Below are positions 51,695 to 63,074 of a stretch of 64,000 nt of DNA, piece by piece. The notes below the pieces were generated by a model. The model worked only from the letters and a program-made list of their open reading frames with translations, was not told where the DNA came from and did no database searches. The stretch spans positions 269,336 through 333,335 of the forward strand of contig CAWAAO010000014.1 of NCBI GenBank assembly GCA_963780015.1, read 5' to 3'. Numbering within the stretch: the first letter of the stretch is position 1; each line of letters opens with the position of its first letter. The translations under genes were made by a program, and so were the position numbers. The stretch comes from an uncultured Actinomycetes bacterium (lineage in GTDB: Bacteria; Actinomycetota; UBA4738; HRBIN12).

Positions 51695-52213
51695 GTGGAC
51701 GAGCCGACGGTGACCGTCGGCAGGATCGCCAAGCCCCACGGTGTCCGCGGGGAGCTGTCCGTGCAGAACCGCTCGGACAACCCCGAACGCTGGGTGCCGG
51801 GCTCCAGAGTGTTCGACGAGACCGGACGGGTGTACACGGTGCGCTCCGCGCGCCCGCACGGCGAACGATTGCTCGTCACGTTCGAGGAGATCGGCGATCG
51901 CACCGCCGCCGAGGCGGTCGCGGGGACCGAGCTCCTCATCCCGGAATCCTGGTTGCCGGAGCTGCCCGAGGGGCAATGGTGGTCCCACCACGTGGAGGGC
52001 TTCCAGGTGACGACGGAGTCCGGGCGCGCGCTCGGGACGATCGAAGAGGTGCTCCCGTATCCGGCACAGGACCTCTGGCGCGTCGTCGCCGACGACGGGA
52101 CCGAGACCCTGATCCCCGCCGCAGAGGAGCTCGTCGTGTCGGTGGACATCGGCGCCGGTCACGCCGTCGTGCGGGACCTTCCCGGGCTGACGGCCCCCGA
52201 GGAGACGGGCTAG
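51695..52213 (+). CDS. rimM: 16S rRNA processing protein RimM
   Basis: GTG 51695. VGRIAKPHGVRGEL motif and a PRC-barrel C-terminal part. Confidence 0.85.
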   Translation: MDEPTVTVGRIAKPHGVRGELSVQNRSDNPERWVPGSRVFDETGRVYTVRSARPHGERLLVTFEEIGDRTAAEAVAGTELLIPESWLPELPEGQWWSHHVEGFQVTTESGRALGTIEEVLPYPAQDLWRVVADDGTETLIPAAEELVVSVDIGAGHAVVRDLPGLTAPEETG

Positions 52214-52917
52214 AGCCCGGCGATCTTCGCCAGCTGCGCCGGCTTCTTCAGGATGTAGCGCTGGCCGTCACGCTGCACGAGGCCGCGGCGCTGGAAGTCG
52301 GCGACGATCCTCGTCACGTTCTCGCGGCTGCCGCCGCACAGGCTCGCGAGGTCGGCGTGCGTGAGCGCGGGAACCGCCGTCCCGGCGTCGGGAAGATCCT
52401 CGAGCGAGGAGGTGCCCATCTGGAGCAGCCGTTTGGCCACGCGGCCCTTCAGATCGAGGTACAGCAGATCGTCGGCGAAGGCCTGGTGCTCCTGGATCTG
52501 CCGCGCGAGGGCCGCCAGGAGTTGGCGGGCGGCCTCCGGCTGGCTCGTGATGAACTCGACGAAGTCCTCGCCGGGGGTGGTCCAGACGTCGGTGTCTTCC
52601 AGCGTCAGCAGGTCGGCGCCGCGGGGGAGGTTCCCGAGCACGCCGAGCTCGCCGAGGAACTGCGGCGTGTCGACCGACGCGTGCAGGATCCGCGCGCCGG
52701 TCGGGGAGAAGGAGCTGATCTCGATCCGCCCGTCCACCAGGAAGTAGACCTCGGGCGACGGGTCGCCCTGGTGGCAGATGTAGGTGCCGCGGCGGAAGCG
52801 TCTGACCGAGCCCAGGGCCGCGAGCCCTTCGACCGCCTTCTTGGGGACCCCTTGCAGCACCGGGCTGGACGCCATGGCGACGATCAGCCCGGCGGCGGCG
52901 GCGACGGTGGGAGACAT
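52210..52917 (-). CDS. Crp/Fnr family cyclic-nucleotide-binding transcriptional regulator
   Basis: Intact 235 aa. The cNMP-binding cassette is FLGELGVLGNLPRGAD. The HTH recognition helix SRENVTRIVADF keeps the R-E-x-x-x-R triad. Confidence 0.85.
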   Translation of the reverse strand: MSPTVAAAAGLIVAMASSPVLQGVPKKAVEGLAALGSVRRFRRGTYICHQGDPSPEVYFLVDGRIEISSFSPTGARILHASVDTPQFLGELGVLGNLPRGADLLTLEDTDVWTTPGEDFVEFITSQPEAARQLLAALARQIQEHQAFADDLLYLDLKGRVAKRLLQMGTSSLEDLPDAGTAVPALTHADLASLCGGSRENVTRIVADFQRRGLVQRDGQRYILKKPAQLAKIAGL

Positions 52918-52924
52918 CGGGCCG

Positions 52925-52930
52925 AGCCTA
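52925..52930 (-). promoter_or_regulatory. -10-like hexamer placed for a leaderless transcript of the Crp-family gene
   Basis: Minus-strand TAGGCT, 7 nt before ATG 52917. Confidence 0.35.
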
Positions 52931-52964
52931 GCGGGAGGAACAGGTCGCTGCTACCTGGAACGCG

Positions 52965-52991
52965 AGAGCCCGGGCCGAAGGCCCGGGCTCT
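52965..52991 (-). terminator. hairpin after small basic ORF A
   Basis: AGAGCCCGGGC-cgaag-GCCCGGGCTCT, an 11-bp stem. It shares its core with the hairpin at 53333-53362. Confidence 0.4.
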
Positions 52992-53015
52992 GGCTGCGAG
53001 GTCGATGCGTGTGGT

Positions 53016-53168
53016 TCAGGACTTCTTGGCGTTGATCCGCCGCGTGCTGGACTTCCTCGCCGCCTTCTTGTGCAGGATGCGACGGGAGCTGGTCTTCTCG
53101 GTCTTGCGGGCGCCCGCGGCCTTCTCGTCCTTCTCGGGCTGCTTCGGCTCGATCTTCTTGTCGGCCAT
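53016..53168 (-). CDS. small basic protein A (50 aa), not in ORF track
   Basis: ATG is preceded by GAGAGGAAGGGA. Translation: MADKKIEPKQPEKDEKAAGARKTEKTSSRRILHKKAARKSSTRRINAKKS. High GC3. Followed by a hairpin. It has a paralog at 53387-53536. Confidence 0.55.
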   Translation of the reverse strand: MADKKIEPKQPEKDEKAAGARKTEKTSSRRILHKKAARKSSTRRINAKKS

Positions 53169-53245
53169 CTGCTGGTCCCTTCCTCTCGGGGCCCCTGCGG
53201 GCCGTCTCCGATGCCTGCATCATCCCGCCGATGCGGCGGGAGCTC

Positions 53246-53307
53246 GGTATCGGAGGTCACATCGAGGGCGTGCTGTCTGTCACCGCCTCGGTGTGACGGG
53301 CGTCACG
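53246..53307 (-). promoter_or_regulatory. array of three CRP-like boxes upstream of small ORF A
   Basis: Plus-strand reading: GGTAT-CGGAGG-TCACA (53246-61), CGTGC-TGTCTG-TCACC (53269-84) and TGTGA-CGGGCG-TCACG (53292-307). Centres are 23 bp apart. The proximal box ends 21 nt before a GATGAT -10-like hexamer (53219-53224, minus strand). Confidence 0.5.
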
Positions 53308-53332
53308 CCGCCGTCGACCGGTCGAGAAACGA

Positions 53333-53362
53333 CGAAACCCGGGCCGAAGGGCCCGGGTTTCG
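53333..53362 (-). terminator. hairpin after small basic ORF B, followed by a T-rich stretch
   Basis: CGAAACCCGGGCC-gaag-GGCCCGGGTTTCG, a 13-bp stem. In the transcribed orientation it is followed by TCGTTTCTC. Confidence 0.45.
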
Positions 53363-53386
53363 TGCGGAGCGTGAGATCGGGTGGCG

Positions 53387-53536
53387 TCAGACCTTCTTGA
53401 CTGAGGTCTTGCGCGCTACCTTGCGGGCCACGACGCGGTTGGAGGTGCGCCGTGCGCTGGTCTTGGTCGCCTTGCGGGCGCCCGCGGCCGGCTCGTCGCT
53501 GGTCGGGAGCTTCGGCTGGATCTTCTTCTCGGCCAT
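53387..53536 (-). CDS. small basic protein B (49 aa), paralog of A, not in ORF track
   Basis: ATG is preceded by GAAGGAGAAG. Translation: MAEKKIQPKLPTSDEPAAGARKATKTSARRTSNRVVARKVARKTSVKKV. It shares MA-[DE]-KKI-x-PK ... DE-x-AAGARK ... KTS-x-RR with A. Confidence 0.55.
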   Translation of the reverse strand: MAEKKIQPKLPTSDEPAAGARKATKTSARRTSNRVVARKVARKTSVKKV

Positions 53537-53613
53537 CTGCTTCTCCTTCGTGCTCCGGGGCTCTCGCCGAGCCGCTCGATAGGCGCATCATGCCCGGTTC
53601 GCCCCGAGATGCC

Positions 53614-53675
53614 CGTAGCGCAGGTCACATCGGGGCGGTGCTTTCCGTCACGGCCGAAGTGTGACGTACGTCACT
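53614..53675 (-). promoter_or_regulatory. array of three CRP-like boxes upstream of small ORF B
   Basis: CGTAG-CGCAGG-TCACA (53614-29), GGTGC-TTTCCG-TCACG (53637-52) and TGTGA-CGTACG-TCACT (53660-75; core palindrome GTGACGTACGTCAC). Spacing is 23 bp. The proximal box ends 21 nt before CATGAT (53587-53592, minus strand). The distal box overlaps the stop codon of the zinc-ribbon ORF. Confidence 0.5.
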
Positions 53676-53883
53676 CGTCGAGTTCGGGGAGGTCGATCGG
53701 ATCGGGACGCGGCGTGCACGCGCCGCAGAACAGCGCGTCCTCGACGACGAGCGCGCGGGTCATGTCTCCGCCCCGGTACAGCTCCAGTACATAGGGCCGC
53801 TCTTGGGCGTGGTCCTCACAGACGCCGCGGCCGCAGAAGCGGCACGAGCCGACCGCCGTCCGGCGGCAATGCCAACACACCAT
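53671..53883 (-). CDS. small zinc-ribbon protein (70 aa)
   Basis: Translation: MVCWHCRRTAVGSCRFCGRGVCEDH...FCGACTP (CxxC, CxxC, C..H, CxxC). The ATG lies 11 nt after the protease stop and is preceded by GGAGGA, consistent with translational coupling. Confidence 0.6.
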   Translation of the reverse strand: MVCWHCRRTAVGSCRFCGRGVCEDHAQERPYVLELYRGGDMTRALVVEDALFCGACTPRPDPIDLPELDE

Positions 53884-53893
53884 CGCGTCCTCC

Positions 53894-56183
53894 TCAGTGC
53901 TCCATGTTTCGGTCGGGTGTTCGCTCCGTCGCGCCACGACGGAACGTTTGTGCGATCACGCTGGCGAATCCCTCTCGGTCCAGCGCGAACACCCGCGCCG
54001 GCGTGTGCGCCGTGACGCTGGCGTTGCGGGGGGCGTCGGTCAGCAGCGCGATCTCGCCGAAGTGCTGGCCGGGCCCGAGCGTCGCGATCACCTCGCCGTC
54101 GCGATCGACGTCGACCTGGCCGGTGCCGAGCACGTAGAAGGTGTCGCCCGCCTCGCCCTGCGTGATCAGCCGCTCGCCCGGGGCGACGTTGCGCCAGGAT
54201 CCGTGCTCGAGCACGAGGGCGAGGTCGGCAGTCGACAGGGTCCGCAGCGGCGGCAGGGCTCGCAGCTCTGCGTAGGCCTGCATGGTCGGCGCGAAATCGG
54301 GCGCGTCGATGTCGTCGGCGAGCAGCCGATCGAACGACGCCTTGTCGACACGGAACAGGGTCGCCTCGCCTTCCGCTCGGGCCGTCGCCGCCCGGACGCC
54401 GGAGCCGATCAGGCCGAATTCCCCGAAGGCGTCGCCGCGACCGAGCGTGGTGATGATGCGCGTGTCGCCTTCGTCCGGATCCTCGTCCTCGATGTGGATC
54501 GTGCCGGACCGCACCACGTAGAACGCATCGGCGACGTCGCCTCGGCGAAACGCCGCCTGGCCGTCGCGCACCGTCACCAGCTCGATACGTCCCGCGAGGT
54601 CGGACAGCGCATCTTCGTCGAGGTCGTCGAACGCGGGGAGCGCGTCGATCAACGCGGCCGCCTCGACCCGCCAGGACCGTTGCACGCGGAACCGGATCCG
54701 GTCCCGGATCGACTTCAGTCGTTTGTAGATGCTGCGTGCCAGCGTGAGGAGACCTCGGATCAACGGCCCGATGAACACGAGGGCGAGGAGCAGCAGCAGG
54801 ATGCGCGAGCCGAGCCCGCCGTTCCACAGGCTCGAGATCAGCCCTCCGAAGATCTCCTGCCAGAAGAAGTAGGCGGTGTAGAAGGAGAAGATCGTGAACG
54901 CGATGCCGACGATCCCGTAGAACCCGAGGCCGAACTCCTGCAGGCTGAACCGCTCCCACCGCAGGATCTTGTGCCACAGATCGCCCTGGATGAAGTTGAG
55001 CGAGCGGCGACGCAGATCCGGCATCTGGATCAGGTCGGAGAAGATCCAGTAGCCGTCCAGCTCGAGCAGCGGGATCAGGTTCATGAAGATGATGAAGTAG
55101 TTGATCAGCGCGAAGCGATAGAGGAACGCGGCGAGGCCGCTGCCCGGCGTCGCAACGATCACGAGCGAGGCGACGCCGGCCAGGATCATCTCCGAGAACG
55201 GCCCCGCGAACGACTGCACGATCCGCTCACGGCGATCCATCATCAGGCCGTCGGAGGCGTCGACGAAGAACGCCGGCGAGCCGAAGAAGATGAAGAACCC
55301 CGCGCCGAGGACACGGCGCTTGTAGTGGATCAACGCCATCGCGTGCCCGAGCTCGTGCGCGAAGGTCAGGAACAGCCCGAGGGCGAGGAAGATCAGCGTC
55401 TCGCCCGGCGCGGCGTCGATCGACAGCTGATAGCGCCCCGATTGCTGCACGCCGATGAACGCGACAAGGCCGACCAGCGCGACGAGGGACCCGAGCACCA
55501 CCAGCACCGGACGGAAGAAGAGCTTCAGCCCTCCGTGGTACGCGCCCTCCACGAAGCCCTCGGCGCCCGCCCAGGAGATCCGCAGGTTCTTCGCGAAGTC
55601 GCGCAGCTTCCGCCGGCCGGCCGAGGCTCGATCGAGGTGCGTCTGTACGAGCGCCTGCACGTCCGGTCGCGCCGGATCGAGGAACCCGCCCTCGCGCAGC
55701 GCCACGATCAAACCGAGCACCGCGGCCGGGTCCAGATCGCCGGCCGCCTGGAGGTGATCGACGATCAGCTCCTGGGTGGTCTTGGTCCCGTCCATCTGCT
55801 CCATGAGCGTCGCTTCCCACGGTTGGAGCTCGAAGTGCAGGGCGTGGTCGGGGCGGGCGACGATGGCGAAGTCGTTGCCCCAGCGCATCGAGAATCGCTT
55901 GATCTCGGTGCCGGCCGCGAGCGTCGGCGCGAACGTCTCGGGGTCGAGCATCGCCGTGAGCTCGTCCCACAGCCCGGGTGTGTCCGCCGCGATCGTGGGA
56001 ACGGCCGCCAGCGCCTCTGCCAGGGCCGGGACGGGTGCCCGTTGCGTCGTTCCGCGCCCGCACGGCGGCCGCGACGAGCCCGGGCACGTGCAGCGCCTTC
56101 CGGCGGGCCGCGCGCTCGCGGATCGCGTCGACGCCGACGATCAGACCCGCGATCACCAGCGCGGCGAGGATCAGGTATTGCAT
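53894..56183 (-). CDS. site-2 protease (peptidase M50) fused to two C-terminal cyclic-nucleotide-binding domains; probable N-terminal extension across a +1 disruption near 56045
   Basis: HELGH lies within a TM helix and NLIPLLELDG is the second S2P motif. The two CAP-type cassettes are FGEFGLIGSGVRAATARA and FGEIALLTDAPRNASVTA. The uninterrupted part is 53894-55951. Upstream, ATG 56183 (SD GAGGGGGA) encodes the TM helix MQYLILAALVIAGLIVGV. The protease frame is open back to about 56120 with no start codon of its own. Confidence 0.75.
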
Positions 56184-56269
56184 CGTCCCCCTCGGACTCC
56201 TCGGAACGCGAACGGCCGGAACGCATCCTGCCCCGAGGCCGATGGTTCCTGCAAGCCGACCATACCCAA

Positions 56270-56332
56270 GGTGCCGCGCGTCACATCCGGCCTGTCGTCA
56301 AGAGCACAGCGCGAACGGTGACGCGCGTCATC
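56270..56332 (+). promoter_or_regulatory. third array of three CRP-like boxes, oriented toward plus-strand small ORF at 56386
   Basis: GGTGC-CGCGCG-TCACA (56270-85), TGTCG-TCAAGA-GCACA (56293-308) and GGTGA-CGCGCG-TCATC (56317-32). Spacing is 23 and 24 bp. The proximal box ends 20 nt before TACGCT (56353-58). An AGGAGG SD then precedes ATG 56386. Confidence 0.45.
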
Positions 56333-56385
56333 GCCGGGCGGCCGTCGATTCCTACGCTGCAGGCATCGATACAGGAGGTGCGCAG

Positions 56386-56557
56386 ATGCTGAACGGAGAC
56401 GTCGCCAGGTACCGGGTCCACGACATGGTCCGCAGCGCCGAGGGTCACCGCGCGGGCCGTCCGATCAGCCGCCGCGCGCAGCGATCGCCGCGCGTCGACG
56501 ATCCGTCGCGTTGCCGCGGCGACGGTCGCGCTGCTGTCCGTCCCGTTCCGGCACTGA
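56386..56557 (+). CDS. small hypothetical protein (about 56 aa if one inserted base is removed; 63 aa to 56577 as sequenced)
   Basis: AGGAGG lies 7 nt upstream of the ATG. The N-terminus is MLNGDVARYRVHDMVRSAEG. GC3 favours a +1 shifted tail ...DRRASTIRRVAAATVALLSVPFRH* ending at TGA 56555-57. Confidence 0.35.
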
Positions 56558-56574
56558 GGCACCCGGGGCCGCGG

Positions 56575-56580
56575 TAGCCT
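56575..56580 (+). promoter_or_regulatory. -10-like hexamer placed for a leaderless transcript
   Basis: GGTAGCCT, 6 nt before the trmD GTG 56587. Confidence 0.35.
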
Positions 56581-56586
56581 CGGGAC

Positions 56587-57345
56587 GTGCGGATCGATGT
56601 CATCACGATCTTCCCGGGGCTGCTCGCGCCGTTCCTGACCGAGAGCCTGCTCGGCAAGGCGATCGCGGCGGGCTCGTCGACGTGCGGGTCCACGACCTGC
56701 GCGACTGGACGCAGGACCCGCATCGCAGCGTCGACGACGCCTCCTTCGGCGGCGGCCCCGGGATGGTGTTGAAGCCCGAGCCGCTGTTCGCTGCGGTCGA
56801 GTCGCTCGACCCCGACCGGGGTCGCGTGCTGGCCCTGTCGCCGGCGGGGCGACGGCTGGACCAGACGCCTCGTCGCCGAGCTGGCTTCCGAGCCGCACCT
56901 CACGCTCCTGTGCGGGCGCTACGAGGGGTTCGACGAGCGCGTGATCGACGGCCTGCCCGCAGAGGAGGTCTCGATCGGCGACTACGTGCTCGCCGGCGGT
57001 GAGCTCCCGGCGTTGGTGCTCATCGAGGCCGTGACCAGGCTGCTCCCGGGCGTGATCGGCAGCGACGAATCGCACGCGCGAGACTCGTTCAGCGAGCCGG
57101 GACTGCTCGACCACCCGCACTACACGCGCCCGCAGGAATTCCGCGGCATGCGGGTCCCGGACGTGCTCGACCTCGGGGATCACGCCGCGATCGAGGCGTG
57201 GCGCGTCGAGGCGCGCGCGCGCCAAGACCCGGCGCAATCGCCCCGATCTGTCGAGCTCCGCTCGGTCCCCGCTCGCGACGCGCGGCAGCGGACGGCAACG
57301 CGGGCGCCCGGAGCCCGCTGGTACAATCGCCAACCGTTGCCATGA
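56587..57345 (+). CDS. trmD: tRNA (guanine37-N1)-methyltransferase, about four frame disruptions (near 56672, 56870, 57213, 57250)
   Basis: [50 protein letters not shown] and RRNRPDL are colinear across alternating frames. The stop overlaps the rplS ATG (ATGA). Confidence 0.8.
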
Positions 57346-59580: not shown

Positions 59581-59967
59581 ATGTCAGACCGCGGTCCTAG
59601 CCTCTGCGCGATGGATCAGCGTGCCGACGTCGGCCGTCGCGGCGAGTTGGCGACGGAGACGCGCTACGTGGCGCGGGGGTACCGCGTCGTCGCCCGGAAC
59701 TGGCGGTGCCGCCTCGGCGAGCTCGACCTCGTGCTCGCCCGCGGCCCCGCGCTCGTCTTCTGCGAGGTCAAGACGCGCCGAGGCTCGCGTTTCGGCGGCG
59801 GGTTCGAGGCGGTGGACGTCCGCAAGCGGCAGAAGGTGCGCGCGCTCGCCGAGGTCTTCCTGCTGCAGACCAAGGCGTCGCCGGCAGCGGTGCGGTTCGA
59901 CGTCGCCAGCGTCTGGCTCAAGCCCGACGGCTCAGCGTCGGTCGAGCTCTTCGAGGACGCCTTCTGA
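59581..59967 (+). CDS. yraN: YraN family endonuclease (UPF0102)
   Basis: GRRGELATETRYVARGYRVVARNWRCRLGELDLV and CEVKTR motifs. ATG 59611 is an alternative start. Confidence 0.75.
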   Translation: MSDRGPSLCAMDQRADVGRRGELATETRYVARGYRVVARNWRCRLGELDLVLARGPALVFCEVKTRRGSRFGGGFEAVDVRKRQKVRALAEVFLLQTKASPAAVRFDVASVWLKPDGSASVELFEDAF

Positions 59968-61461
59968 CAATCGACGAAGCGCCGCGATCAATGCGTCGAC
60001 CTCGGCGCGTGTCGACAGGTAGTTCACGATCCCGGCGCGCAGGTACGTGCGGCCTCGAAGCGTCGTGACGCTCACCCACGCGGTGCCGTCGACCTCCAGC
60101 GCCCGCTGCAGCGCGTTCTCGTAGGCGTCGAGGTCGATGTCGTCCGATGCCGCCGGGCCGGGCAGGTGTCGGAAGCACACGACCGACAGCTCCGGTTCGC
60201 ACGCGAGATCGAAGTCCGGTGCCGTCCGAAGCGTCTCGGCCAGGTAGGCGGCCAGGTCGTCGTTGTGCTCCACCAGACCGCCGAGGCCCTCGGTGCCCAG
60301 ATGCTGCCAGCTCATCCAGAGCTTCAGCGCACGGAACCGTCGCGTGCCTTCGATCGAGTACTCGTAGTAGTTCAGCGGCGCGTCCTCCGGACGGTTCGAC
60401 GCGTAGTACTCGGGCGCACGATGGAACGTGTCGAGGAGGTCCTGGCGGCGACGCACGACGAGGGCGCCGATGTCGTAGGCCTGGAAGAACCACTTGTGTG
60501 GATCGACCGTGACCGAGTCGGCCAGCTCGAGGCCGGGCACCCGCTCGGCATCGCGTGCCGACAGCCTGGCGGCGCCCCCGTAGGCGGCGTCCACGTGGAG
60601 CCAGCAGCCCTCGGAGGCGGCCAGCCGGGCGAGCGCCGGGACATCGTCGACCGATCCCGTGTTCGTCGAGCCGGCGACGGCGCAGATGGCAAGCGGGATC
60701 AGCCCCGAGGCGCGATCGGCCGCGATGGCGGCGGCGACGGGCTCGGCCCGGAGTCGGAACGTCTCGTCGGAGGCCACCACGCGCAACGTGTCCTCCGGGA
60801 ACCCGAGGATGTCGAGCCCACGCCCCACCGAGAAGTGCGTCTGGTCGCTCGCGTACACGCGCACGCCGTCCAGATCGGCACCGCGCGGGGCGCGATCCAG
60901 ACCGCGCAGCGTCCGCAGGTGCACCTCGCGAGCCACGGCGAGCGCCATGAGGTTGGCCATGGCGCCGCCGCTGGTCAGCACGCCCCATGCGCCCGGCGGC
61001 AACCCGACGAGGTCGCAGAGCCAGCGGGTGACCTCCTCCTCGACGAACGCGCCGACCGGTCCCGCGTGCCAGACGTCGACCCCTTGTTGGAGCCACTGGC
61101 CGAGCACCTCGCCGCCGACGGACATCGCGAGCGGCGGCGGCGTGAAGTAGCTGAACGCGGCCGGGTGCTGCGCGTTGAAGGTCATCGGCGCGACGCGTTC
61201 CCGGAACGTGCGAAGCACGTCGTCGGCGGGCACGCCGCGCCCGGGCATGCTCGCGGGCGATCCGTCGGGGCCGAAGAAACGCCGCCGCGAATCCGGGTAG
61301 CTGTCGGGATGGATCGGCCGGTCCATCGCGCGGTCGAACAGCCAGTCGAGCGCCTCGGTCGTGATCGCGTCGGCGAACCGCGCAAGCGCCTCCCGGGCGC
61401 CCGGCGCCGTCAGATCCAACAGCTCCGGGTCGGGGACCCGCGGCAGATCGTCACGCGGCAC
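59932..61461 (-). CDS. PLP-dependent group II amino-acid decarboxylase family
   Basis: Intact 509 aa. HVDAAYGGAA and TVDPHKWFF (PLP-lysine) motifs. Confidence 0.8.
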   Translation of the reverse strand: MPRDDLPRVPDPELLDLTAPGAREALARFADAITTEALDWLFDRAMDRPIHPDSYPDSRRRFFGPDGSPASMPGRGVPADDVLRTFRERVAPMTFNAQHPAAFSYFTPPPLAMSVGGEVLGQWLQQGVDVWHAGPVGAFVEEEVTRWLCDLVGLPPGAWGVLTSGGAMANLMALAVAREVHLRTLRGLDRAPRGADLDGVRVYASDQTHFSVGRGLDILGFPEDTLRVVASDETFRLRAEPVAAAIAADRASGLIPLAICAVAGSTNTGSVDDVPALARLAASEGCWLHVDAAYGGAARLSARDAERVPGLELADSVTVDPHKWFFQAYDIGALVVRRRQDLLDTFHRAPEYYASNRPEDAPLNYYEYSIEGTRRFRALKLWMSWQHLGTEGLGGLVEHNDDLAAYLAETLRTAPDFDLACEPELSVVCFRHLPGPAASDDIDLDAYENALQRALEVDGTAWVSVTTLRGRTYLRAGIVNYLSTRAEVDALIAALRRLSEGVLEELDRR

Positions 61462-61522
61462 GCCGGGAGGCTACTAGGGGGCGGCCGTGACATCCGTCAC
61501 CGTCGACGGGGCGACCGCGGCC

Positions 61523-61535: not shown

Positions 61536-63074
61536 ATGTACGGACGGGTGCGTGGCATGACGGTCCTCGGCGTGGGCGGGCACCCGGTGACCGTCGAGGC
61601 CTTCGTCGGCCGCGGGTTGCCCGCGCTCACCCTCACCGGTCTTCCCGGCGCGGCCGTGGCCGATGCCCGCGATCGGATCCGTCCCGCGGTGGAGCACGCG
61701 GGCTTGGAGTGGCCGTTGCGCCGGGTCGTGGTCAACCTCGCGCCCGGCAACCTGCGCAAGGAGGGCGCCGGCCTCGATCTCCCGATCGCCGCGAGTGTGC
61801 TGGTGGCCACCGGGCAGGTGCCGGGGGCGGCCGTCGCCGGCGCCGTGTTCTTCGGGGAACTGTCGTTGAAGGGGGAGGTGCTGCCGACGCCCGGCGTCCT
61901 GTCGGTCGCGATCGCCGCCGTACAGAGCGGCTCGCCGGTCGTCGTGGTGCCGAAGGCCAACGCCGTCGAAGCCGCGCACGTCGAGGGGATCCACGTGGTC
62001 GCCGTGTCGTCGCTCGAACAGGTGGTGATGTTCCTGCGTGGCACCTGGCACGCGCCCGAGATCGAGGTCGAGGCGGGCGCGGGGTGGCAGTCGCCGGCCG
62101 CCGATCTCGCCGATGTGCGCGGGCAAGCCCAGGCGCGCAGGGCGCTCGAGGTGGCCGCCGCCGGCGGGCACAACCTCCTGCTCGTCGGCTCGCCCGGCGC
62201 AGGCAAGACGATGCTCGCCCGCCGGCTCGCGTCGATCTTGCCCGAGCTCACCCGTGACGAAGCGCTCGAAGCCACGCAGTTGCATTCGGTGGCGGGGTTG
62301 CTGGCGGGCCGCGGTCTGCTGCGGCAGCGCCCCTTCCGATCGCCGCACCATTCGATCAGCACCGTCGGGCTGCTCGGGGGCGGCTCGAGCGTGTTGCGCC
62401 CGGGGGAGGCGAGTCTCGCCCACCGCGGCGTGCTCTTCCTGGACGAGCTGACCGAGTTCCGACGCGACGCGATCGAGTCGCTCCGCCAGCCGCTCGAGGA
62501 CGGGTGCGTCGTCGTGACGCGCGCCAGCGGGTCGGTGACCTTTCCCGCGCGATTCACGCTGGTGGCGGCGGCCAACCCGTGTCCGTGCGGTTTCCGCGAC
62601 GACCCGGTGCGCGTGTGCGGGTGTCGCGACGACCAGCGTGCGCGCTACATGGGCAAGCTCTCGGGTCCGCTGCTGGATCGCATCGATCTGCGTGTGCGGG
62701 TGCCTCGGCTCACGAAGCACGAGCTCCTCGGTGCCGCGGGCGGCGAGCCCTCGGCCGTCGTGCGGGCGCGCGTGCTGGACGCCCGCGACCGACAGCTGCA
62801 CCGGTACCGCGACACCGTCTGGACGTGCAACGCCCATCTCCCGGGGCCGCTCGCGCGCCGGCAGGCGTCGTTGACCGATGAGGCGGAGCACCTGCTGGGT
62901 GACGCGGTCGAGGCCTCGGCGTTGTCGGGGCGAGGGTTCGACCGGGTGATCAAGGTCGGTCGCACCATCGCGGACATGGAGGGAGTCGCCCGGGTCGATG
63001 TGGGTCACATCGCCGAGGCGCTGTCCTACCGAGAGGCGTTCGAGCCGGAGGAGCGGACGGCGCGTGCGAGCTGA
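61536..63074 (+). CDS. comM: YifB/ComM family Mg-chelatase-like AAA+ ATPase
   Basis: Intact 512 aa. Lon-like N-terminal domain, Walker A GSPGAGKTMLA and VLFLDELTEF. Confidence 0.9.
   Translation: MYGRVRGMTVLGVGGHPVTVEAFVGRGLPALTLTGLPGAAVADARDRIRPAVEHAGLEWPLRRVVVNLAPGNLRKEGAGLDLPIAASVLVATGQVPGAAVAGAVFFGELSLKGEVLPTPGVLSVAIAAVQSGSPVVVVPKANAVEAAHVEGIHVVAVSSLEQVVMFLRGTWHAPEIEVEAGAGWQSPAADLADVRGQAQARRALEVAAAGGHNLLLVGSPGAGKTMLARRLASILPELTRDEALEATQLHSVAGLLAGRGLLRQRPFRSPHHSISTVGLLGGGSSVLRPGEASLAHRGVLFLDELTEFRRDAIESLRQPLEDGCVVVTRASGSVTFPARFTLVAAANPCPCGFRDDPVRVCGCRDDQRARYMGKLSGPLLDRIDLRVRVPRLTKHELLGAAGGEPSAVVRARVLDARDRQLHRYRDTVWTCNAHLPGPLARRQASLTDEAEHLLGDAVEASALSGRGFDRVIKVGRTIADMEGVARVDVGHIAEALSYREAFEPEERTARAS

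Follow-up and report, generated by a model that had tools for sequence, protein, structure and literature searches.

Phased arrays of CRP-type boxes at duplicated small-gene promoters of an uncultured actinomycete: candidate cooperative operators in a conserved cyclic-nucleotide cassette

What is the role of a promoter region in which three CRP-type boxes abut at a strict period, and which protein reads them? This question is raised by a 64,000-nt stretch of DNA from an uncultured Actinomycetes bacterium (assembly GCA_963780015.1, contig CAWAAO010000014.1, positions 269,336 to 333,335), which is designated the window and to which all coordinates refer. On its minus strand, at 52950-53700, the window carries a tandem duplication, whose two units (A and B) align with 80% mean column identity. 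Each unit comprises, in this order, three 16-bp boxes, an nATGAT hexamer, a leader of ~50 nt with a GGAG-type ribosome-binding site (RBS), a Lys/Arg-rich open reading frame (ORF) of 49-50 aa and a GC-rich hairpin terminator. A previous reading of this DNA from the sequence only had proposed duplicated promoters. The alignment of the units shows that whole promoter-gene-terminator modules were duplicated, and that the boxes and an ATGATGC block are kept between the copies, as had been claimed. The arrays are probably cooperative operators for the Crp/Fnr-family regulator encoded directly downstream, which would activate a promoter lacking a -35 element from about -41.5 in a class II-like manner; binder, cooperativity, ligand, start site and activation are what we infer here from the DNA and its relatives.

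The six boxes are located exactly where the sequence-only reading had placed them, with the sequences given there and with centres exactly 23 bp apart in both copies. In copy B, the distal box (53660-53675; AGTGACGTACGTCACA) is a perfect 14-bp palindrome, which also holds the TGA stop codon of the upstream gene encoding a Zn-ribbon protein. It scores 21.4 bits with a position weight matrix (PWM) built from all loci, the training set of which included these boxes. The middle box (53637-53652; CGTGACGGAAAGCACC) has a degenerate right half-site (GCAC), and the proximal box (53614-53629; TGTGACCTGCGCTACG) is centred at ~-41.5 relative to the start derived from the hexamer. The right half of the proximal box, GCTAC, is non-palindromic, yet itself conserved. 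The corresponding boxes of copy A are found at 53292-53307 (distal; CGTGACGCCCGTCACA), 53269-53284 (middle; GGTGACAGACAGCACG) and 53246-53261 (proximal; TGTGACCTCCGATACC). The box type is GTGAC-N4-GTCAC, to which every distal box conforms perfectly, and the boxes have the hallmarks of operators of the CRP/FNR family, i.e. they are inverted repeats of 16 bp that share a conserved GTG-N8-CAC core.

Is such a cluster expected by chance? The whole window was scanned with an independent PWM, which was trained solely on boxes of other genomes (L003-L015), using a cut-off of 12 bits. Exactly nine sites were detected: the six boxes described above and three further sites at 56270, 56317 and 61486, all of them intergenic. 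Dinucleotide shuffles of the window (n = 300) yielded 2.27 +/- 1.5 hits each, and phased triplets, of which the window has two, occurred in none of them. A loose search of the whole window for TGTGA-N6-TCACA with up to two mismatches revealed no enrichment (8 hits versus 12 expected). The sequence-only reading had named an equal motif density in shuffled sequence as an outcome that would count against the boxes. This outcome was indeed obtained for the loose consensus, but not for the PWM hits and the phased triplets, which both exceed the shuffles. The signal resides in the phasing and in the conservation across genomes, and a chance origin of the boxes is excluded.

Conservation was assessed with a scan of a genome collection using the Crp protein, which retrieved 15 orthologous loci from metagenome-assembled genomes of uncultured Actinomycetes (72-92% identity). 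The promoter comparison set comprised 18 promoters from 16 genomes. Here, the boxes are spaced by 22-24 bp, mostly by 23 bp, and the invariant columns of the alignment are confined to GTGAC..CAC, GTGA..CAC and GTGA..G.TAC of the boxes, A.GAT of the hexamer and the ATG. Pairwise identity amounts to 94-97% in the half-site columns (96.8% for the distal box) and to 90% in the hexamer, and it drops to 39-44% in the spacers between the boxes and in the stretch between box and hexamer. These values support strong purifying selection on the boxes while the spacers drift. Box scores follow a gradient in every locus, with ~20 bits for distal boxes and 12-15 bits for middle and proximal boxes. In some genomes four or five boxes are present, and the additional ones are near-perfect palindromes added at the distal end.

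The same architecture reaches beyond these close relatives. A metagenome-wide scan with the pattern GTGA-N7-CAC-N9-GTGA-N7-CAC-N9-GTGA-N8-AC returned mostly unrelated low-GC satellites with a 23-bp period. High-GC loci with the phased pattern numbered 38, however, and ~25 of them belong to the cassette of genes described here or carry its small ORF. They include lineages with Crp proteins of just 46-63% identity and small proteins of divergent subfamilies, e.g. MADKKITPKAA...(QTKR)n. Inspection of divergent promoters by eye revealed up to six phased boxes, one of which is again located at -41.5, relative to a CAnGMT hexamer. In the MADKKITPK subfamily (L028, L030, L031, L075, L092, L135) up to six boxes are found, two of them with the right half-site only, and an additional GTGAC-N5-nGAC pseudo-box abuts the -10 hexamer with its centre at ~-18.5, i.e. 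inside the core promoter. The count of three boxes per promoter given in the sequence-only reading thus holds for both copies in the window, but not as a fixed number, since 3 to 6 boxes are present in related genomes and metagenome cassettes.

The geometry of the core promoter is equally constrained. A hexamer resembling a -10 element is located at 53587-53592 in copy B (CATGAT) and at 53219-53224 in copy A (GATGAT). Position 2 (A) and positions 4-6 (GAT) of this hexamer do not vary among the 18 promoters. In both copies the proximal 16-mer ends exactly 21 nt before the hexamer, as previously noted, and this gap measures 21-22 nt in 18/18 promoters, with no conserved columns in between. If the conserved nAkGAT (A and GAT invariant) is the -10 element, the proximal box is centred at -41.5 or -42.5 and transcription is predicted to start near 53580 (copy B) and 53212 (copy A). 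No match to a sigma-70-type -35/-10 pair was found in the promoter region, which agrees with the weak or absent -35 element of class II promoters. The hexamer nATGAT itself looks sub-optimal, as its first T is missing, whereas the neighbouring crp gene displays the canonical -10 element of the lineage, TANNNT. This hexamer (TAGGCT; 52925-52930, minus strand) is located exactly 7 nt before the crp start codon in all loci, suggesting that the crp promoter is leaderless and box-free.

If the hexamer is the -10 element, the class II geometry that had been claimed for the array would hold for the proximal box in all 18 promoters, but not for the boxes upstream. In E. coli, class I and class III promoters need room for the C-terminal domain of the RNA polymerase alpha subunit (alpha-CTD), and the upstream site of class III promoters lies on the same helix face, e.g. 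at -74.5 or at -90.5 to -93.5. The upstream boxes found here are centred at about -64.5 and -87.5, 23 bp apart, and dimers bound there would abut, which, as argued for whiB1 of M. tuberculosis (PMC2844151), leaves no room for alpha-CTD. They fit none of the E. coli rules for class I or tandem class III sites, and hence 'class II' should be taken to refer to the placement of the proximal box alone. Other assignments in the core promoter region were tried and rejected. A GGGCAT motif was considered as -10 element of the SigF/SigB type, but the register of its G-run is inconstant and the motif is absent in several loci, whereas ATGAT is invariant. ATGATG as a start codon, giving an N-terminal extension or a leaderless mRNA, was discarded because its frame relative to MAEKKI, the start of the small protein, varies between loci, the intervening peptide is unconserved and the RBS precedes the ATG of MAEKKI.

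Which protein could read the boxes? The presumed binder is the Crp/Fnr-family regulator encoded at 52210-52917 (minus strand), directly downstream of the duplicated units, which matches the Pfam domains cNMP_binding (cNMP, cyclic nucleoside monophosphate) and HTH_Crp_2. Its closest solved relatives are CRP of M. tuberculosis (Rv3676) and GlxR of C. glutamicum (E ~2e-25). The helix SRENVTR retains the equivalents of R180, E181 and R185, through which E. coli CRP contacts DNA, and it aligns to RETVGR in E. coli and RETVNK in M. tuberculosis. The sequence-only reading had pointed to the adjacent Crp-family protein as the regulator, and sequence comparison concurs in that the R-E-xxx-R recognition helix, i.e. 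the GTG-reading type, is present. Across 25 orthologues, down to ~46% overall identity, this helix reads THADLASLCGGSRENV(T/S)R (23 SRENVTR and 2 SRENVSR), with the R, E and R contacts unchanged in 25/25. A near-invariant recognition helix thus matches an invariant GTGAC half-site, and the array co-occurs with the cassette Crp in every locus with enough sequence. In the cNMP pocket, the GEL motif and the phosphate-binding Arg are retained, and substitutions are present at S83 (to G), T127 (to H) and S128 (to Q; E. coli CRP numbering). In E. coli CRP, T127 and S128 contact the adenine of cyclic AMP (cAMP).

A second phased array is located at 56270-56332 (minus strand), upstream of the operon encoding an M50-like protease and the Zn-ribbon protein. 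It consists of boxes at 56317-56332, 56293-56308 (weak) and 56270-56285. L005 and L011 likewise have three boxes, and other loci have two, which are 46 bp apart. Conservation of the array, followed by the core promoter, extends to 9 loci, and the array is missing from L007-L010, L013 and L015. The predicted core promoter of the operon (56225-56254, minus strand) comprises TTGCAG (56254-56249), an 18-nt spacer and CAGGAT (56230-56225). In the 9 loci, the -35-like TTGC is invariant and followed after 17-18 nt by an invariant A.GAT.C (CAGGATGC), and the same type of -10 element therefore appears to recur within the cassette. The second array lies wholly upstream of the -35-like element, which is a position of the activator type.

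How would the arrays work? According to the mechanism we favour, the distal site, perfectly palindromic and of high affinity, would bind a Crp dimer first and thereby nucleate loading. Abutting dimers would then load cooperatively from the distal towards the weaker promoter-proximal site, and the proximal dimer, placed over the -35 position, would most likely activate RNA polymerase through a class II-type contact. In this way, the gene of the small basic protein would be switched on steeply and in a cNMP-dependent manner. Activation is favoured because of the fixed distance between box and hexamer, the missing -35 element in combination with a sub-optimal -10 element, and the position of the second array upstream of a -35-like element. 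Class II CRP promoters have a distance of 22 bp from the CRP site to position 2 of the -10 element (PMC10187061), and the fixed distance seen here matches this published signature.

The arrangement shares features with several characterized systems. As in class II promoters of the CRP/FNR family (E. coli CRP at galP1, FNR, NtcA, T. thermophilus TAP), a 16-bp inverted repeat of the GTG-N8-CAC type would replace the -35 element, with its centre ~41.5 bp upstream of the start predicted from the hexamer, the regulator has an R-E-xxx-R helix, and the distance from site to putative -10 element matches that of class II. Unlike in those promoters, the site in the class II position is the weakest of 3-6 abutting sites, and start and activation are predicted here. 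The S. meliloti Clr motif, HGTYHC-N4-GRWACA (reviewed in PMC10187061), has conserved C6 and G11 flanking a 4-bp central spacer, as in GTGAC-N4-GTCAC; Clr differs in that it stems from another lineage, tolerates variation at position 4 and uses single sites rather than phased arrays. In the mtl operator of E. coli, five CRP sites spaced by 43-44 bp are read by the co-repressor MtlR (PMC13421365). This is likewise a multi-site CRP array, in which the conserved centre-to-centre spacing rather than the spacer sequence is functional. However, 43-44 bp leave room for a bridging protein, whereas dimers abut at 23 bp. The mtl case demonstrates that a conserved spacing of CRP sites may serve the recruitment of a third protein (PMC13421365). 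By analogy, one may speculate that the conserved Zn-ribbon protein is a co-regulator with an MtlR-like role.

The closest characterized actinobacterial case is whiB1 of M. tuberculosis, where CRP (Rv3676) sites 21 bp apart are centred at -58.5, from which CRP activates, and at -37.5, a weaker site from which it represses (PMC2844151). The proximal site represses because abutting dimers exclude alpha-CTD (PMC2844151). Similarities to the present arrays include the actinobacterial host, the CRP protein, which is the closest solved relative of the cassette Crp, and the adjacency of sites, of which the stronger upstream one aids the weaker proximal one. The differences concern the number of sites (two versus 3-6), their spacing (21 versus 23 bp) and positions (-58.5/-37.5 versus a proximal site at -41.5) and the core promoter, since whiB1 possesses a TTGACA of its own together with an extended -10 element and no -35 element is found at the small genes. 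The layout of an activate-then-repress promoter of the whiB1 type, in which a strong site at a class I position neighbours a weaker site over a functional -35 element, is hence not found here.

Several points nevertheless weigh against cooperative activation by the cassette Crp. Actinobacterial promoters often lack a -35 element, and its absence is therefore weak evidence for dependence on an activator. The assignment of the hexamer as -10 element derives from conservation alone. Array and -35-like element are separated by a variable 9-18 nt at the M50 promoter, which is looser than classical class I phasing. The pseudo-box at -18.5 in the divergent subfamily occupies a repressor-like position, and by analogy whiB1 would point to repression (PMC2844151). 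As both adenine-contacting residues are replaced (H and Q for T127 and S128), the ligand is uncertain, and the effector of the cassette Crp may be other than cAMP. Finally, a separate global CRP of the same genome could also read the boxes.

Some of these points feed into the main rival reading, a repressor or biphasic operator, in which Crp dimers filling the array would occlude the -35 region or displace alpha-CTD, so that full occupancy means off, or the gene is on only at intermediate levels of the regulator. We regard this as rather unlikely, albeit with a precedent in whiB1, where the weaker promoter-proximal of two adjacent CRP sites 21 bp apart represses and the upstream site helps its occupancy (PMC2844151). 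The GTGAC pseudo-box at ~-18.5 in the MADKKITPK subfamily fits repression as well, cooperative multi-site arrays are commonplace for repressors, and basal transcription could be provided by read-through from the upstream operon, because no terminator was found between the Zn-ribbon gene and array B. However, repression would have no recognizable -35 element to occlude, and the -10 element is sub-optimal. Moreover, the distance between box and hexamer is fixed within 1 nt over deep divergence, a constancy that steric repression does not need, the array at the M50 promoter lies wholly upstream of the -35-like element, and whiB1 differs from the small-gene promoters by its own TTGACA and extended -10 element.

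Another possibility, to which we assign a low probability, is that the boxes are read by a different protein, e.g. the global CRP/GlxR orthologue of the genome or another GTGAC-binding factor, and that the neighbouring Crp is linked to them by gene neighbourhood only. The motif (GTG-N8-CAC) is indeed generic for the CRP family. In addition, an isolated perfect box (CGTGACATCCGTCACC; 61486-61501) is located 8 kb away from the arrays, at a divergent promoter unrelated to them, which hints at a more extensive regulon. Arguments to the contrary are the constant company of array and cassette Crp, the metagenome-wide scan, which found the array mostly in this cassette, and the essentially invariant recognition helix matching the invariant half-site. 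Effectively refuted is the idea that the boxes do not bind protein and are instead left over from a 23-bp tandem repeat, form an RNA element or cluster by chance in GC-rich DNA. Although unrelated metagenome contigs of low GC content do contain 23-bp satellites compatible with the loose pattern, conservation is restricted to the half-site bases while the spacers fall to 39-44% identity, which is the opposite of a repeat remnant, and the boxes are palindromic, with phased triplets in 0/300 shuffles. As to an RNA element, transcription is predicted to start downstream of the region, and an Rfam scan of 52000-57000 returned one sub-threshold chance hit, leaving the conservation unexplained by a known RNA element.

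The evidence thus supports an element of a known kind, i.e. a CRP-family operator at a class II-like promoter, in an arrangement (3-6 abutting sites, strict 23-bp period, fixed affinity gradient, dedicated cassette) that we did not find described; literature searches retrieved no description of a 23-bp phased Crp array or of this cassette. Regulation by the CRP family is usually described with one site, or two well-separated sites, per promoter. As dozens of related genomes share this layout, it appears to be a real genetic switch, putative in function. If loading is cooperative, the arrays would be a natural means of converting graded cyclic-nucleotide signals into a sharp switch of transcription, and they would be a useful part for synthetic biology in high-GC hosts. 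In addition, the arrays mark out an uncharacterized cNMP cassette, the product of which belongs to a rare family of very small basic proteins whose repeat tails evolve fast.

The cassette block sits between rimM and trmD, on the opposite strand. Its gene order, trmD / M50-cNMP / Zn-ribbon / small basic ORF (1-2 copies) / crp / rimM, is kept in 15/15 related loci, and every small ORF of these loci is preceded by the same architecture of boxes and hexamer. It would be a compact, uncharacterized cNMP-responsive module of abundant uncultured soil Actinomycetes. The Zn-ribbon gene (53671-53937, minus strand) encodes a Cys-rich protein of 88 aa, which diverges less than its neighbours in the compared loci (L028-L115), with 71-84% identity where Crp has 49-63% and the M50 protein 46-59%. 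The M50 gene (53894-56183, minus strand) encodes, according to Pfam/NCBIfam matches and related loci, an M50-like HExxH membrane metalloprotease with two C-terminal cNMP-binding domains. Nine related loci were checked for this protein, which begins in them with a transmembrane segment (MQYLILAALVIAG...) read in the same frame as the remaining protein. The window differs, since the segment, with its start at 56183, and the ORF starting at 55951 are in different frames, indicating an indel at roughly 56040-56060, i.e. an assembly error or a real frameshift. As a separate observation, trmD (56587-57345, plus strand) is split over frames, as residues ~30-107 align to orthologues in another frame than the remainder, which implies one indel near 56674 and another near 56907. 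Taken with the frameshift in the M50 gene, this suggests assembly indel errors in this part of the contig.

Known system types that share single components were examined and rejected. PADLOC hits of Crp and the M50 protein to a defence system all arise via the generic cNMP-binding domain of Pycsar effectors. A cluster for a ribosomally synthesized and post-translationally modified peptide (RiPP) was likewise dismissed, because the hit to the NCBIfam family 'daptide HExxH protease' scored 154 bits versus a cut-off of 300 and modification genes of the daptide or RiPP type are absent. Outside the cassette, the isolated box at 61486-61501 is flanked by a gene for a PLP (pyridoxal phosphate)-dependent decarboxylase (59932-61461, minus strand) and a divergent gene of the Mg-chelatase family, YifB/ComM-like (61536-63074, plus strand); it may represent a further member of the regulon or a target of a global CRP.

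What do the arrays control? ORF B (53387-53536, minus strand) encodes 49 aa, starting with MAEKKIQPKLPTSDEPAAGARKATKTSA, and ORF A (53016-53168, minus strand) encodes 50 aa, starting with MADKKIEPKQPEKDEKAAGARKTEKTSS; a basic tail follows in both cases. Both ORFs display an excess of changes at third codon positions. Within the first 23 codons of the small ORFs, pairwise comparison counted 1128 differences at third positions as compared to 541 at first and 411 at second positions, and this excess argues that they are protein-coding. The N-terminal block of ~27 aa is conserved (MAEKKIQPKRP..DEPAAGARKAEKTSA). The tails consist of hypervariable basic tandem repeats with units of 4-8 residues, such as (KRVHA)5, (KAVHP)7, (KKQLA)6, (SKRVA)5, (ARRWS)3, (KAGKRAGL)4 and (QTKR)4, and further units are THKA, STNR and GKHLR (across the window, L003-L015 and L028-L135). 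The family is rare, with 27 representatives at E <=0.001 among 1.84 billion proteins and 22 clusters at 90% identity; it has no match in Pfam and NCBIfam, and all members are unannotated.

A bolder proposal, which we consider unlikely to hold as a whole, is that the arrays form the ultrasensitive switch of an undescribed, self-contained cNMP module consisting of a cNMP-gated intramembrane M50/HExxH protease, the Zn-ribbon protein and a dedicated Crp. Its output would be a peptide with an N-terminal 'leader' (MAEKKIQPKRP..AAGARK) and a hypervariable cationic repeat 'core', e.g. (KRVHA)n, (KKQLA)n, (ARRWS)n or (QTKR)n. The protease may process this peptide, which could act in an antimicrobial- or RiPP-like fashion or as a dormancy factor coating nucleoid or ribosomes, and 3-6 Crp dimers at 23 bp may form a wrapped nucleoprotein filament. 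To our knowledge, such a mode is undescribed for the CRP family.

The small ORFs are followed by GC-rich hairpin terminators, which are located on the minus strand at 53334-53361 for ORF B (GAAACCCGGGCC-loop-GGCCCGGGTTTC, followed by a T-containing tail) and at 52965-52991 for ORF A, with a core GCCCGGG...CCCGGGC that is kept in all loci. In the 5' leader, just before the RBS (53190-53203 and the equivalent of copy B), a short GGNC/GNCC stem-loop was noted, weakly supported by compensatory changes in 2/4 pairs across loci. The promoter-ORF-terminator unit was duplicated independently, repeatedly and at different times (window, L007, L008, L053, L064, L097, L121), with identities between the unit copies of 99% in L008, 88% in L007, 75% in the window and 64-76% elsewhere.

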